Assembly (NCBI GenBank): GCA_963816145.1
Contig: CAWFJP010000030.1
Coordinates: forward strand, 320,001-384,000
Source of the DNA: an uncultured delta proteobacterium
GTDB taxonomy: Bacteria > Desulfobacterota > Binatia > UBA9968
Reading direction: 5' to 3'
DNA: 64,000 nt
Shown: positions 18,623 to 23,123 of the stretch, piece after piece
Layout: every line of letters starts with the position of its first letter
Numbering within the stretch: position 1 is the stretch's first letter
Program-made: the position numbers and the translations under genes
Notes under the pieces: generated by a model
Database searches by the model: none
Told to the model about the DNA's origin: nothing
The model's input: the letters and a program-made list of their open reading frames with translations, nothing else

Positions 18623-20266
18623 ATGAAAGTCGTCGACGTTATCGCCGAGATTTTGAAGCGCGAAGGCGTAGAGTTCCTCTCCTGCTACCCGACCAATACC
18701 ATGATCGAAGCTGCTGCGTCGGCGGGCATCCGGCCAATCGTCTGCCGCCAAGAGCGCGTCGGCGTCGGCATCGCCGACGGCTTTTCCCGCGTCACCAACG
18801 GCAAACGCATCGGCGTTTTCAGCATGCAAGCCGGACCAGGCGCGGAAAACGCCTACTCCGGCATCACGACTGCCTACTCGGACTCCACGCCGATCCTACT
18901 CTTGCCTGTCGGCCACGCGCGCAACACGTCGCAAGTGCATCGATTCTTTCGTTCGGTGGAAGCCTACGCTTCGGTCACTAAATGGACCGAAGAGATCACG
19001 CTGGCGAATCAAGTGCCGGAGATCATGCGGCGCGCCTTCAGTTATATGAAAATGGGCCGCCCTGGTCCGGTGCTGGTGGAGATCCCCAATGACGCCGCCA
19101 TCGAAGAATTCCCCGCGGCGGCGATCGACTACACGGCAGTCAAGCGCACCGTCGCCGGCGCCAATGTACAAGATGTCGAAGCCGCTGCCAGAGTTTTAGT
19201 CCAAGCCAAACGTCCAGTGATCGTCGCCGGCCAGGGCGTGCTTTGGGCCGAAGCGACGGCCGAGTTGGTCGAGCTTGCGGAACTCTTGCAAGCGCCGGTA
19301 ACCACACCGCTCGAGGGCAAGAGCGCTTTTCCCGAGCATCATCCCTTGTCCCTCGGCACCGGCGCCGGTGTCATGCCCCGGCCAGTGCACAGCTTCTTGC
19401 AGAAAGCCGATGTCGTCTTCGCTATCGGCGCGAGCTTGACTAAACACAACATCGTCGCCGCGCCGATCCCGGCGGGTAAGACGATCATTCACGCCACCAA
19501 CGACGAACGCGACTTGAACAAACACTACGCCACTGATTATCCGCTGTTGGGCGACGCCAAGCCGGTATTGCAGCAATTCATCGCAGCGGTAAAAGATCAG
19601 CTCGGCAACAAAAAGCGCGAAGCCAACGGCGTCGCCGCAGAGATCAAAAAGGGCAAAGAAGAGTGGATGGCGGAGTGGCTGCCAAAGCTCACGTCGAGCG
19701 AAAAACCGATGACACCCTACCGCGTCATGTGGGAGTTCATGAATCTGTTCGACCGCAAAGATGTCATCGTCACCCACGACGCCGGCAGCCCGCGCAACCA
19801 ACTCGTGCCGTTTTACCAAGCGCCAGTGCCGCGCAGTTACCTGGGCTGGGGCAAGTCCCACGCTCTGGGAACCGGTTTGGGTTTAATTATGGGCGCCAAG
19901 CTCGCCGCCCCGGAAAGGTTCTGTGTCAACTTTATGGGCGACGCGGCCTTCGGCATGACCGGTTTGGATTTCGAAACCGCCGTGCGCAATAACATCCCGA
20001 CTTTGACAATCGTGTTGAATAACAACTTCATGGCCGCCGAAACCCACAGCATGCAAGCCTCCCACGAACGCTACGGCACCATGAATATTCTCGGCAACTA
20101 CGCCGACCTGGCAAAATCCCTCGGCGGCTGGTCGGAGCGCGTCGAAGATCCCGGACAAATCGTCCCGGCGCTCCAGCGCGCCTACAAAACAACTCAAGAC
20201 GGCAAGGCGGCGTTGCTGGAGTTTGTCACTAGCCGGGAGATCGCTTATTCAAGAATGAGAGATTGA
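18623..20266 (+). CDS. Thiamine pyrophosphate-dependent enzyme (acetolactate synthase large subunit-like, probably catabolic)
   Basis: RQERVGVGIADG, GPGAEN, GRPGPVLVEIP, GDAAFGM...NN TPP motif. Confidence 0.9.
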   Translation: MKVVDVIAEILKREGVEFLSCYPTNTMIEAAASAGIRPIVCRQERVGVGIADGFSRVTNGKRIGVFSMQAGPGAENAYSGITTAYSDSTPILLLPVGHARNTSQVHRFFRSVEAYASVTKWTEEITLANQVPEIMRRAFSYMKMGRPGPVLVEIPNDAAIEEFPAAAIDYTAVKRTVAGANVQDVEAAARVLVQAKRPVIVAGQGVLWAEATAELVELAELLQAPVTTPLEGKSAFPEHHPLSLGTGAGVMPRPVHSFLQKADVVFAIGASLTKHNIVAAPIPAGKTIIHATNDERDLNKHYATDYPLLGDAKPVLQQFIAAVKDQLGNKKREANGVAAEIKKGKEEWMAEWLPKLTSSEKPMTPYRVMWEFMNLFDRKDVIVTHDAGSPRNQLVPFYQAPVPRSYLGWGKSHALGTGLGLIMGAKLAAPERFCVNFMGDAAFGMTGLDFETAVRNNIPTLTIVLNNNFMAAETHSMQASHERYGTMNILGNYADLAKSLGGWSERVEDPGQIVPALQRAYKTTQDGKAALLEFVTSREIAYSRMRD

Positions 20267-20293
20267 CGACAGATTTTGCTGGTGTGTGAAATG

Positions 20294-20590
20294 GGGGAGA
20301 ATTAGCTCCTGAGTAGCTAATACTGATCCGCCGTGCACTTTGCATAGTAAACCTTCAGCTCAAGCCAGCAACAAAACTGAATGACACTTGGCTTCAAGCG
20401 ACGGGGTTCTGAATTCATCGAATGAAAGTCGGCTCTCCCTTCGTCAATCCGGCGCAGAGCCTGCCCCGAACTCGATCTGGGGCCGGAATCCAGACTTTTG
20501 AACTCGAACCGGACTCGAATCGGGATGCCGGCTTGCGCCGGCATGACAAATCTTCCCTTGGCATGAAGGCGAGGGATTCTAATTCTCCCC
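20294..20590. mobile_element. MITE-like element, copy 2
   Basis: Perfect 12-bp terminal inverted repeats GGGGAGAATTAG (20294-20305) / CTAATTCTCCCC (20579-20590); non-coding palindromic core. Confidence 0.75.
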
Positions 20591-20660
20591 GAGAGACACC
20601 AACTCATACCCCCCCCGGACATATTGACTTGCTCCATCGAAATGTTTACCCGTATTTGCC

Positions 20661-20984
20661 GTGGGCCGTACTCTTATCAACTGCCTTCTCGTGCTGAGCC
20701 TCGTTCTCGGCGTCGCGCCGGCGGGTGCGGTCTTCCCGCACGAGCTAAGCGAGCGATCGACTGAGCCTGGAACTCCCCTTGAACGGGAGGAAGCGGTCGC
20801 ACGCTCCGCCGTCTCGCGGGCAGCGTCAAATCGGAGCGGCAAATATAGCCCAGCCGATCTCCCCGGACGATTGATAATCATTACGGCCGCGCCGCAATCG
20901 ATTTCTGCGCAACCACTACCGCTCGCCCCTTCTGTCAGCTCTCCGCCTCATCTGCATCAGCTTTACGGCGTGCTGCGTATCTAA
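20661..20984 (+). CDS. Small signal-peptide-bearing leader ORF upstream of terC (candidate regulatory nascent peptide)
   Basis: GTG start, hydrophobic LLVLSLVLGVAPAGA signal, low-complexity S/A/P linker, C-terminus LHQLYGVLRI. Confidence 0.55.
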   Translation: MGRTLINCLLVLSLVLGVAPAGAVFPHELSERSTEPGTPLEREEAVARSAVSRAASNRSGKYSPADLPGRLIIITAAPQSISAQPLPLAPSVSSPPHLHQLYGVLRI

Positions 20985-20988
20985 ACTC

Positions 20989-21060
20989 GTCTCCGTTCAT
21001 TCTAGTTTTGTGACCTGGCCCATTCCTGTGCTTCTATAGCTCTTTTTTCGGAACGGAGAC
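20989..21060 (+). promoter_or_regulatory. SD-sequestering stem for terC
   Basis: gtctccgttc (20989-20998) is the exact reverse complement of gaacggagac (21051-21060), which contains the GGAG SD just before the ATG at 21064. Confidence 0.65.
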
Positions 21061-21063
21061 CCC

Positions 21064-22008
21064 ATGGATTCGGATCGCCTACTGCTGTGGATTGTTTTCA
21101 ATATTTTCGTATTTGGCATGCTCACCCTCGATCTGGGTGTGTTTCACCGTAAGGCTCATGCGGTGTCGCTCAAAGAGGCCGGCGTTTGGAGCTGTATTTG
21201 GGTGAGCTTAGCGCTGGTCTTTAACTTCGGGATTTACTACCTCTGGGGACAGGAGAAGGCACTGGAGTTCTTGACCGGTTACGTCATCGAAAAATCGCTC
21301 AGCGTCGACAACCTCTTTGTCTTCTTAATGATCTTCCAATATTTTAACACCCCGGCGGAGTACCAGCACCGGATTTTGTTCTGGGGCATTGTCGGCGCGT
21401 TGATTCTGCGCGCGATCTTCATCGCCACCGGTTCGGCTCTGTTGTCGAATTTCCATTGGATGATCTACGTCTTTGGCGGCTTTCTTGTCATCACCGGTAT
21501 CAAGATGTTCATGCAGGGCGACGAGAAGATCGAGCCGGAGAAAAACCCGGTGGTGCGGCTGTTTCAGCGCATGATGCCGGTGACCCACAATTATCACGGT
21601 CAGAATTTCTTCGTCTCGAAGGACGGGAAGAGACAGGCCACGCTGATGATGGTCGTGCTGATCGTGGTGGAAACCACCGACGTAATCTTCGCGGTCGACT
21701 CGATACCGGCGATCTTCGCCATCACCACCGACCCGTTCATCGTCTACACGTCCAACGTGTTTGCCATCCTCGGCCTGCGCGCCCTCTATTTCATGCTCGC
21801 GGGCGTTATGGAAATGTTTGTCTACCTGAAAGTAGGTCTTTCCTTTGTGCTGGTTTTCGTCGGCGTCAAGATGACCCTGGTCGACGTCTACAAGATCCCC
21901 ATCGGCGCATCGCTTGGCGTGATTGGCGGGATACTCTTGCTTTCGGTCCTGATGTCCCTGGCATCTCAGCGCCGCCCGGTTCCAAGCAGCAGTGACGAGC
22001 CCCTCTAG
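21064..22008 (+). CDS. terC: TerC/Alx family membrane protein (metal homeostasis)
   Basis: EKSLSVDNLFVF, ETTDVIFAVDSIPAIFAIT, SNVFAILGLRALYF. Confidence 0.95.
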   Translation: MDSDRLLLWIVFNIFVFGMLTLDLGVFHRKAHAVSLKEAGVWSCIWVSLALVFNFGIYYLWGQEKALEFLTGYVIEKSLSVDNLFVFLMIFQYFNTPAEYQHRILFWGIVGALILRAIFIATGSALLSNFHWMIYVFGGFLVITGIKMFMQGDEKIEPEKNPVVRLFQRMMPVTHNYHGQNFFVSKDGKRQATLMMVVLIVVETTDVIFAVDSIPAIFAITTDPFIVYTSNVFAILGLRALYFMLAGVMEMFVYLKVGLSFVLVFVGVKMTLVDVYKIPIGASLGVIGGILLLSVLMSLASQRRPVPSSSDEPL

Positions 22009-22100
22009 ACCGGCTGGGTTATGCGCCATGGCAGCAGCAGAGCGGACCAAGCTTGAGTTTTCCGAAGACACGAATTAGCTTAGCGCCGGAGGGATTTTCC

Positions 22101-23123
22101 ATGCTGCATACCCAAGTAACTCGCCGGATCGTGTCGCTATCGTTTCTCATAGGAGCACTGGTCATCGCGCAAGGCACGCTATTCGCTCAATCGCTCGACG
22201 TTGAAGCCGCCAAGAAGGAAGGCAAAGTCACTGTCTACGGCACGACGGTTACGAACGTCATGGTGCCGATCCATACGGCCTTCGAAAAGCGCTATGGCGT
22301 CAAGGTGGACTATTGGCGCGCTTCGGCGACGGCTGTCGCCGAACGGGCGATCGCCGAATGGCGCGCGGGCAAGCCGGGATTCGATGTCATCTTCGCGATC
22401 AACGGCACGGTCGCGCTCTTGAAAGGCGAAAACGCTCTGGCCAAGTTCACAGCGCCGGCCGCGGCCAAGTTTCCTGCGCAGTTCAAAGACAAGGACGGTA
22501 TCTTGACGGCGTTCCGCCATACGCCGATCAGCCTGCTCTACAATACGGAGTTAGTGAAGCCCGCCGACCTGCCCAAAGGATTCGACGACTTGCTCGATGC
22601 CAAATGGCAGGGCAAGATCTCGATCCCCGATCCGTCGCGCCACACCAGCACGGCGCAGTTTCTCTGGAACCTGCAGAAGATCAAAGGCGACAAATGGATG
22701 GACTACGTGCGCGCGCTGGCAAAGCAGAAGCCATTTTTGGTCGAGTCCTTCGCGCCGCTGCCGCAAGCACTAGTCAAAGGCGAAGCCCATATCGGCATCA
22801 CTTATGCTCAATACACCACACAAGTAAAAGGGCCGTTGAGCCACGTAGTCTTCGACAAAGTTTTTACGGATTCCACAGACCTGGCTTTGGGAGCCAAGGT
22901 GGCGAGCCCTAACGCCGGCAAATTATACATCGACTTCCTCTGCACTCCGGAAATCCAAAAGATCATCGCAGACGCCGGCGACTTCCCCCTTGCCCCGGGC
23001 GTCTATCCCAACGTCAAAGACGCCGAGAAGGTCGTCGCCAACGCGATCTTCATGGACAACCCGAGCGAGGAGGAGTTCAAGAAACTGCGAGCCGAGTTTC
23101 GCAAGATTTTCGTAGGGCAGTAA
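22101..23123 (+). CDS. Extracellular solute-binding protein (Fe3+/thiamine cluster), paralog of 11884-12873
   Basis: Signal peptide, AKKEGKVTVYG, VKVDYWRA, YNTELV..PKGFDDLL, PNAGKLYIDF. Confidence 0.9.
   Translation: MLHTQVTRRIVSLSFLIGALVIAQGTLFAQSLDVEAAKKEGKVTVYGTTVTNVMVPIHTAFEKRYGVKVDYWRASATAVAERAIAEWRAGKPGFDVIFAINGTVALLKGENALAKFTAPAAAKFPAQFKDKDGILTAFRHTPISLLYNTELVKPADLPKGFDDLLDAKWQGKISIPDPSRHTSTAQFLWNLQKIKGDKWMDYVRALAKQKPFLVESFAPLPQALVKGEAHIGITYAQYTTQVKGPLSHVVFDKVFTDSTDLALGAKVASPNAGKLYIDFLCTPEIQKIIADAGDFPLAPGVYPNVKDAEKVVANAIFMDNPSEEEFKKLRAEFRKIFVGQ

Follow-up and report, generated by a model that had tools for sequence, protein, structure and literature searches.

What controls a terC gene of the Alx subfamily in a genome in which no yybP-ykoY riboswitch can be recognized? 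The question is raised by a 64,000-nucleotide (nt) stretch of DNA from an uncultured delta proteobacterium (assembly GCA_963816145.1, contig CAWFJP010000030.1, positions 320,001 to 384,000 of the forward strand), called the window here, in which a gene encoding 314 amino acids (aa) starts with an ATG at 21064 and extends to 22008 on the plus strand. Its product matches Pfam PF03741 (4.4e-54, 183 bits, cut-off 27.8) and NCBIfam TIGR03718, R_switched_Alx (2e-132, 441 bits, cut-off 246), and by these profile matches it is a TerC-family protein of the Alx subfamily. In the literature searched, TerC/Alx genes are placed under yybP-ykoY riboswitches or, for mgpA, under a short leader (PMC12421838). 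Upstream of terC, the presumed regulated gene, lies an open reading frame (uORF; 20661..20984, plus strand) with a GTG start and a TAA stop at 20982-20984, encoding an exported-type leader peptide of 107 aa that ends in ...HLHQLYGVLRI. The locus is best explained as a cis-regulatory cassette that works through this translated, exported leader peptide and not through a riboswitch.

An earlier note, made from the letters of this DNA, had described the 107-aa frame ending at 20984 and had seen no yybP-ykoY element in front of terC, and on both counts it was right. Searches for yybP-ykoY (RF00080) returned nothing at E<=10 in 20200-21400 and nothing in the whole 7.8-Mb, 99.5%-complete genome, with matches in both controls, E. 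coli and B. subtilis, and nothing at the gathering score in 20 other loci carrying terC homologs.

The upstream reading frame and its linkage to terC

The uORF is a companion of terC within one family of uncultured bacteria, whose records are labelled Candidatus Binatia or delta proteobacterium. Among the best 30 terC loci, one of which is cut by a contig end, the uORF precedes terC in 23 of the 29 that can be assessed; this comparison had been proposed in the earlier note and turned out in its favour. In every locus that bears the uORF the next gene is terC (protein start M-[DE]-S-[DE]-R-[LI]..LW..FN), at the end of an intergenic region (IGR) of 67-99 nt in the main group. The uORF is missing in the loci of G008, G114, G023, G074, G103 and G009, the last five of which have a terC identity of 75% or less, and upstream of terC homologs that are further removed it is likewise absent (53-65% identity, from Geobacteraceae, Thermoanaerobaculia, Planctomycetota and others). 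In the window's family, 59 of 90 genomes hold a terC ortholog at E<=1e-60, a tally that is the only one to include G035 and G088. When the uORF profile A2 was run against 123 genomes of the order, 22 gave a match, every one of them from the window's family (f1 21/89, f2 0/5, f3 0/28). The two weakest matches, L032 (G104) and L033 (G099), were rejected as long unrelated frames without a downstream terC, which leaves 20; the weak match L006 (G058) is known from its listing alone. These profile tallies are underestimates, because six of the 23 carriers (G006, G026, G014, G080, G122 and G028) escaped the profile.

Beyond these genomes, a single-sequence search returned eight metagenomic homologs of 103-148 aa with 62-74% identity, and a profile search of 1.84 billion representative proteins returned 29 at E<=1e-3, mostly of 102-110 aa. 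The uORF product matches no Pfam or NCBIfam family, and its motif ending was found once in the genome. At least 79% of sampled words of the stretch are present in 16 soil or wetland metagenome runs. Locus L005/L016 of genome G005, which is flagged unpublished, counts as one row in A2, in alignment A4 and in the 24-locus counts; a protein identical to its uORF product (P0017) is also in the public representative library, and no conclusion hinges on G005.

The uORF is under selection as a protein. For the 36 pairs that nine loci from the window's subgroup form, two of which are undefined, the ratio of non-synonymous to synonymous substitution rates (dN/dS) is 0.09-0.55 for the uORF against 0.03-0.08 for terC at similar dS, from which it follows that the uORF is coding and under purifying selection, although by this ratio it is 5-7 times more relaxed than terC; TerC proteins are still 74-91% identical where uORF products drop to 18-62%. 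The frame is 103-110 aa long and open in 27/27 loci. Conservation along the peptide was scored on alignment A3, with 26 representatives, as the mean BLOSUM62 sum-of-pairs per segment, giving 1.04 for the signal (residues 1-24), 1.36 for the post-signal acidic block (residues 25-50), 0.98 for the basic block (residues 51-62), -0.29 for the linker (residues 63-94) and 1.74 for the C-terminus (residues 95-107), with the last seven residues, at 2.48, the most conserved segment. Conservation is thus concentrated, as had been proposed in the earlier note, in the signal and the last ~10 residues, but it is not confined to them, for an acidic E-R-E-E with a basic S-R..R.R patch forms a third conserved block.

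At the C-terminus, the window's H-L-H-Q-L-Y-G-V-L-R-I (20949..20981), a candidate arrest motif, corresponds to a family consensus of L-H-x-L-L-x-V-[FL]-R-I-stop. The arginine at -2 is present in 24/24 loci (CGT 6, CGA 2, CGC 12, CGG 2, AGA 2) and, as R106, invariant in 26/26 representatives, isoleucine at -1 occurs in 23/24 loci (ATC or ATT), valine at -4 in 20/24 (GTG, GTC or GTT), and position -3 is leucine or phenylalanine, written with eight different codons over the same 24 loci. Because Arg(-2) uses five codons from both the CGN and AGA families, selection acts on the peptide; nucleotide conservation cannot account for a residue that switches between CGN and AGA.

The third block carries an acidic patch, L-E-R-E-E, at residues 40-44 (20778..20792), followed by conserved R48, S52, R53 and R58; R42 is kept in 92%, E44 in 85% and R48 in 85% of the 26 members, in which neither Cys nor His is conserved except within the C-terminal motif. 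Its acidic motif, [ED]-R-[EQD]-[EDQ] around the R42 column, lies 59-67 residues from the C-terminus (median 65) despite the unconserved linker between them, about 40% of which is P/S/A/G/T. The N-terminus (residues 1-24, 20661..20732: MGR, a hydrophobic core and APAGA) is by its composition a predicted Sec-type signal peptide: the n-region has a charge of +1 or +2 in 21/26 members, the median length of the uncharged core is 18 aa, and small residues stand before the predicted signal end. From the end of the core to the C-terminus there are 77-89 aa (median 85). An AF2 model from a 26-row alignment contains a helix at residues 2-17 only (pLDDT 61, pTM 0.19), and the product beyond the signal helix is accordingly predicted to be disordered, for which the model is moderate evidence because the alignment is shallow. 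A complex prediction of TerC (1-314) with the mature uORF product (24-107) scored 0.00 and is not used as evidence either way. In the ESM Atlas only clusters of hypothetical proteins were retrieved; DUF2946/DUF6769/CzcI, among the nearest named matches (0.91, with few shared features, often chance), was unconfirmed by Pfam and set aside.

Transcription of the uORF probably starts at or next to its start codon. A promoter-like motif (20624..20652) consists of TTGACT (20624-20629), a 17-nt spacer and TACCCG (20647-20652), which the start codon follows by 8 nt, and the same pattern, TTGAnT, N16-17, TAnnnn and an in-frame start codon 6-10 nt on, recurs in 27/27 loci, and a TG frequently lies two to three nt ahead of the TA. 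Start codons in these loci are ATG (14), GTG (12) and TTG (1), and a Shine-Dalgarno (SD) sequence is absent in most. Since the start codon closely follows the motif, the uORF mRNA is probably leaderless or nearly so, with a transcription start site (TSS) that we infer from the motif. A scan with the E. coli sigma-70 consensus omitted the motif because only the TA of its -10 hexamer matches. Among the stop codons, TAG is used in 20 and TAA in four of 24 loci and TGA in none, against TGA 1113 (37%), TAA 1004 (33%) and TAG 917 (30%) in the long frames of the genome; the avoidance of TGA fits either termination specific to release factor 1 (RF1) or a need for UA in helix P1, described below. Near-identical contigs from four RNA-library runs, which may include DNA, fall inside the uORF in X18 (20672-20849) and X19 (20736-20886) and inside terC in X17 and X20; the interval 20913-21083 is uncovered and therefore uninformative. 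Further upstream, in the ~350-nt gap between a thiamine pyrophosphate (TPP)-enzyme gene (18623-20266) and the uORF promoter, the window holds a GC-rich hairpin, GCCGGC-TTGC-GCCGGC (20521-20544), whose sole Rfam match, CRISPR-DR28, is at chance level (E 9.8).

Individual loci depart from the common layout. In L078 (G008), the promoter motif and the first ~25 uORF codons, with the signal peptide, are kept, the remainder is gone and the frame enters the terC SD region, an apparent internal deletion that removes the regulatory peptide. The N- and C-terminal halves of the uORF lie in different frames in L025 (G025; ...LQILRI-stop) and L030 (G018; ...LHLLQVRRI-stop), through either a frameshift or an assembly error, and one of these two is also a possible cause in L005 (G005), where the terC frame after the uORF (1886-2020) is open for just 45 codons and TerC homology begins at 2156. 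The TerC ortholog has 383-433 aa, against ~314, in L004, L017, L019, L023, L024, L027, L028, L031 and L035; in the long orthologs of L004, L017 and L028, Pfam matches the TerC domain only, at residues 70-272. The window's genome has two TerC-family genes, the second of which, more distant (71 bits to PF03741), lies outside the window, at G000:C30:316751-317548, ~24 kb upstream of the locus. In Geobacteraceae-type loci (L044, L045, L050-L052, L054, L060, L070 and L102), the frame upstream of terC ends ...FSTHPPMEERIARLE..., which we take to resemble the C-terminus of an HtpX/M48 protease. HtpX is among the proteins that co-purify with a TerC protein of B. subtilis (PMC10550928).

Two helices over the terC initiation region

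The perfect 10-bp stem that had first drawn attention to this locus is confirmed. Its 5′ arm, the anti-SD GTCTCCGTTC (20989-20998), begins 4 nt past the uORF stop, and its 3′ arm, GAACGGAGAC (21051-21060), holds the terC SD GGAG (21055-21058), 5 nt before the ATG; the loop of this helix, P2, spans 20999..21050 and includes an internal hairpin, weak here and GC-rich in relatives, and a T-rich tract at 21042-21048. P2 is the single inverted repeat in 20900-21120 (10-nt arms, 100% complementary, 52 nt apart), and the pattern occurs once in the window and in 0/100 dinucleotide shuffles. The minimum free energy (MFE) fold of 20960-21090 includes it (-36.1 kcal/mol, z -1.9), with 8/200 shuffles folding as well. 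The P2 duplex itself, at -18.7 kcal/mol, compares with a mean of -8.0 (standard deviation 3.7) for 398 pairs of co-directional genes that were drawn from this genome as a rough background, each with 55-105 nt of IGR and an ATG start bearing an SD; 0.75% of them reach -18.7.

In the relatives the partners of P2 are the pyrimidine-rich 10-15 nt after the uORF stop and the SD region, and their sequence varies by subgroup with complementarity kept. The arms read GTCTCC-GTTC : GAAC-GGAGAC in the window's group and TTCCnTTCTCC : GGAGAAnGGAA in most other loci, the order of the half-sites being swapped on both strands, ATTTCATTC : GAATGAAAT in L037 and TAGCTCCGTTC : GAACGGAGTTA in L014. Changes on both sides are found in 8/12 P2 pairs, and the arms co-vary: cognate arms pair at -13.2 against -11.0 kcal/mol for non-cognate ones (0/20,000 permutations), 71.7% of P1 and P2 cells are paired in alignment A4 against 66.3% after shuffling (0/500) and 32-55% in slid registers, and the covariation score in the same alignment is 0.223 against 0.161 (0/500). 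MAFFT misaligns P2 at indels, and an arm-only mononucleotide shuffle gives modest z-scores for many loci. In the MFE folds of 19/24 loci the SD core pairs with nt +1..+15 past the stop, and when the stop and 12 nt are masked, as a mimic of the ribosome, the probability that the SD is unpaired goes up by 0.1 or more in 16/24.

A second helix, P1, of which the earlier note made no mention, pairs the last three to four uORF codons and the UA of the stop (20973..20983) with the UG of the terC start and codons 2-4 (21065-21075), and is 81% paired over 24 loci. Synonymous recoding places the actual codons at a median percentile of 0.27, with 5/22 loci at or below 0.1; the codons are not strongly tuned for pairing, and the result implies that P1 is not maintained by codon choice. 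P1 is largely a consequence of the uORF and TerC peptide sequences and does not explain the conservation of the peptide. The opposite idea, that the C-terminal conservation is a by-product of P1 pairing, was rejected on this recoding result and on the AGA/CGN arginine codons. A terminator or attenuator reading was likewise discarded: no intrinsic terminator was called in 20200-22200, and the hairpin with a T-run of L004 and L011 is not kept in the other group.

A paralogous module offers a view of the peptide in another RNA setting. A second TerC group (MDSQ..., ~73% identical), in G116, G118, G120 and G121 (L104-L107), is preceded by a paralogous uORF that shares the promoter motif, the signal and the acidic block and ends in ...F-x-V-[VL]-L-[RQ]-[IV]-stop. 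Three of these loci have an IGR of 32-36 nt and G121 has one of 82 nt, and in the short-IGR paralogs the predicted SD partner, CCUUU, lies within the last uORF codons. The peptide motif thus persists while the RNA layout differs, which argues from the sequences compared that the motif has a role of its own. In G118, two terC copies stand in tandem.

Proposed mechanism and its alternatives

Taken by analogy with known nascent-chain regulators, the locus points, with a little more than even confidence, to a Sec-type monitoring substrate or termination-arrest peptide that gates the translation of TerC. The promoter-like motif would give an mRNA starting at or a few nt from the uORF start codon, and its translation would yield the 107-residue product with a Sec-type signal, an acidic and then a basic patch, a disordered linker and a C-terminal motif abutting the stop. 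The terC initiation region would be locked by both helices, with P2 holding the SD and P1 the AUG and codons 2-4, and only a ribosome at the last uORF codons or stop would open the two; this anatomy implies that terC is efficiently initiated only while a ribosome occupies the uORF end. With isoleucine in the P site, the leading edge of the ribosome would lie at ~20994 by the usual +15/16 toeprint geometry and cover 6/10 arm nt. In the most likely course the C-terminal peptide would slow termination or the last elongation steps in the manner of an arrest peptide, the ribosome would dwell and terC would be translated, and engagement of the N-terminal part with the Sec translocon would shorten the dwell, so that TerC synthesis would report on export or on a condition sensed at the membrane. 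A programmed dwell at or near the stop is suggested by the long, exported and disordered peptide, the C-terminal constraint, the biased stop and the fixed charge-block distance. The strongest constraint falls on residues that, once the A site receives the stop codon, would lie at the peptidyl-transferase centre and in the upper tunnel. The candidates for the signal include Sec capacity, an effect of the membrane potential on the charge block and an extracytoplasmic cation such as Mn2+ or Ca2+.

A more specific version, which we regard as unlikely, casts the leader peptide as a trans-membrane 'ruler' sensor, a functional substitute for the cytoplasmic Mn2+ riboswitch found at alx genes. With the ribosome at V-F-R-I-stop, the acidic patch, held 59-67 residues away from the peptidyl-transferase centre, would just have come out of SecYEG at its outer face, with the basic patch in the channel, and Mn2+ or Ca2+ binding to the acidic patch, or membrane potential on the charge dipole, would generate a pulling force that sets the dwell at the stop and hence TerC/Alx synthesis. 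If true, this would make it the first sensor based on a nascent chain for extracytoplasmic hard-metal status or proton motive force, and the first monitoring substrate for a component of the TerC 'secretosome', with a Pro-free termination-arrest motif.

Several points weigh against a regulatory arrest. The arrest itself is something we infer. Pro is absent from the C-terminal motif, which is unlike every arrest motif that the sources compared here name, so the sequence gives no reason to expect stalling; plain translational coupling explains the helices equally well without it. The signal peptide was called from composition and not by a dedicated predictor, and the conserved acidic and basic patches are also compatible with a mature peptide that has a function. 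The RNA-library contigs, in which no 5′ end is seen and none of which joins the uORF to terC, are no proof of transcription. The stem, whose conservation had been proposed at the outset, is kept through different sequences across the family but clearly degraded in the window's close relatives L002, L009, L010 and L011/L012, and P2 is weak or displaced in 5/24 loci (L009, L011, L012, L026 and L027); masking does not raise SD accessibility in 8/24 loci. The shuffle and permutation statistics ignore the kinship of the loci, and the structure was derived from the same sequences. Finally, the short IGR of the paralogous module and its anti-SD within the coding region show that the architecture is not uniform.

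The main rival, possible though we judge it unlikely, dispenses with arrest: the uORF would encode a small exported protein that partners TerC, for instance a periplasmic metal-handling or accessory subunit, its conserved C-terminus would be a binding or sorting determinant, and the helices would merely couple translation. Purifying selection on the ORF, its three conserved blocks, among them an acidic patch to which hard cations might bind, and a strict terC linkage across two paralogous groups all suit such a protein, as do the helices, which ordinary coupling explains equally. It sits less easily with a product that has no predicted fold beyond the signal helix, an unconserved, low-complexity linker and an evolutionary rate 5-7 times that of TerC, and above all with the position of the sharpest conservation, which abuts the stop and goes with a biased stop codon, a combination characteristic of nascent-chain effectors that one would seldom expect in a binding tail.

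Coupling could also be the whole story, an option to which we give a rather low probability. The leaderless uORF would then serve as an entry ramp, any ribosome finishing it would open the terC ribosome-binding site, and the peptide would be conserved for non-regulatory reasons, such as efficient export that clears the product, or a degradation tag. The sequestered SD and AUG of terC and a uORF start at the inferred TSS agree with this, and in the system of PMC10987492 even arrest-defective uORF variants transiently open the stem-loops; yet it leaves unexplained an Arg-Ile-stop held invariant through five Arg codons, a ruler fixed at 59-67 residues and an exported ORF of 100-110 codons where a short uORF would do. 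Even without arrest, the locus would illustrate cleanly how a leaderless uORF with translational coupling can take the place of a riboswitch. Far less probable still in our estimate is control of terC by RNA alone, through an unrecognized riboswitch or a thermosensor to which the ORF is incidental. The Alx subfamily is usually riboswitch-controlled, as the name of TIGR03718 records, and the IGR has a conserved internal hairpin; against this, no Rfam family matches at E<=10, the IGR sequence itself is poorly conserved, and the uORF has a dN/dS well below 1 at normal dS and the uniformly open frame of 103-110 codons in all 27 loci.

Relation to known leader peptides and riboswitches

Monitoring substrates and CutF-like sensors have been described upstream of secA, secDF and yidC and of Cu/Ni-type metal genes (PMC10987492, PMC9973294), and the logic proposed for the uORF would be that of SecM, VemP and the stop-codon stallers (PMC10987492) and of CutF (PMC9973294), which for a metal-linked reading is the nearest precedent and had gone unmentioned in the earlier note. 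The screen for monitoring substrates in PMC10987492, which covered the uORFs of secA, secDF and yidC only, looked for a small uORF of a sec or yidC gene with an export signal or transmembrane (TM) segment, a conserved C-terminus and a spacer of more than 30 aa. Like the substrates reported there, the present uORF is small and without annotated function, carries an N-terminal export signal, here predicted, and a C-terminal motif conserved among divergent homologs, has a spacer well beyond 30 aa (77-89 aa, median 85), and precedes an SD locked in a stem open to disruption by a ribosome at the end of the uORF, which here is an in silico result and weak in 5/24 loci. Stalling with a stop codon in the A site also has a precedent in PMC10987492. 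Unlike those substrates, it stands before TerC/Alx and not before secA, secDF or yidC, its V-[FL]-R-I-stop has neither Pro nor a RAPP-like element, its spacer is tight where that of Sec monitors varies widely (PMC10987492), and it has an extra conserved acidic/basic block. A link to secretion is plausible even with a neighbour outside the sec/yidC set, because SecY, SecDF and YrbF co-purify with the TerC proteins of B. subtilis, for which a role in metalating proteins during export has been proposed (PMC10550928).

CutF-like (DUF2946) proteins are exported, metal-sensing nascent proteins (Ozturk et al. 2023, PMC9973294). As in CutF, a frame of less than 150 aa combines a Sec signal peptide with a conserved motif in the exported part, putatively for a ligand, and a conserved C-terminal motif that resembles a stalling sequence, and a short same-strand IGR, of less than 100 nt in CutF, with an SD-shielding stem-loop leads to a metal-homeostasis gene, CutF acting in cis (PMC9973294). 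The contents of the motifs differ: the Cys/His motif of CutF is absent, with the acidic E-R-E-E in its place, and there is no conserved PP, Pro occurring at -13 in 13/24 and at -12 in 7/24 loci and P-P at -13/-12 in 7/24. None of the 26 members matches DUF2946 (Pfam PF11162 or related) at E<=1, and no other Pfam family is matched consistently. The neighbour also differs, being TerC; the main text of PMC9973294 mentions neither TerC nor manganese, and two of its supplement files do not mention TerC either. The main text of PMC10987492 is likewise silent on TerC, and its supplements, like further ones of PMC9973294, could list such neighbours. Among the openly accessible papers that the searches listed, none described an arrest or leader peptide of this kind on TerC/Alx.

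With the yybP-ykoY (RF00080) Mn2+ riboswitch, the cassette shares its place, 5′ of an Alx-subfamily TerC gene, and control of the ribosome-binding site or transcript; the sensor here would instead be a translated, exported peptide, which would put the reading of the signal at or across the membrane rather than in the cytoplasm. YoaL, the leader peptide of mgpA/yoaE, which encodes a TerC-CBS-CorC protein in Salmonella and E. coli, is likewise a translated upstream ORF that raises expression of a TerC-domain membrane protein, but it overlaps the mgpA upstream region, and the passage that describes it mentions no export signal, arrest motif or stem (PMC12421838). MifM of B. subtilis, compared by description, is a membrane-targeted nascent chain of ~100 aa whose arrest opens an SD-sequestering hairpin of the downstream gene (PMC10987492); it differs in having a TM anchor in place of a cleavable-type signal, in monitoring YidC and in stalling at several sites before its end.

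As the uORF lacks a sec or yidC neighbour on the one hand and the Cys/His motif, the PP and the DUF2946 match on the other, it is filed with neither the monitoring substrates nor the CutF-like proteins, and is therefore treated as a separate family with a new class of target gene and a new motif. Placed before an Alx-type TerC, a conserved exported leader would give nascent-chain sensing a new target and would fit the proposal of TerC as a secretion accessory that metalates exported proteins, and its C-terminus would be a candidate for a new, proline-free arrest motif acting at the stop codon.

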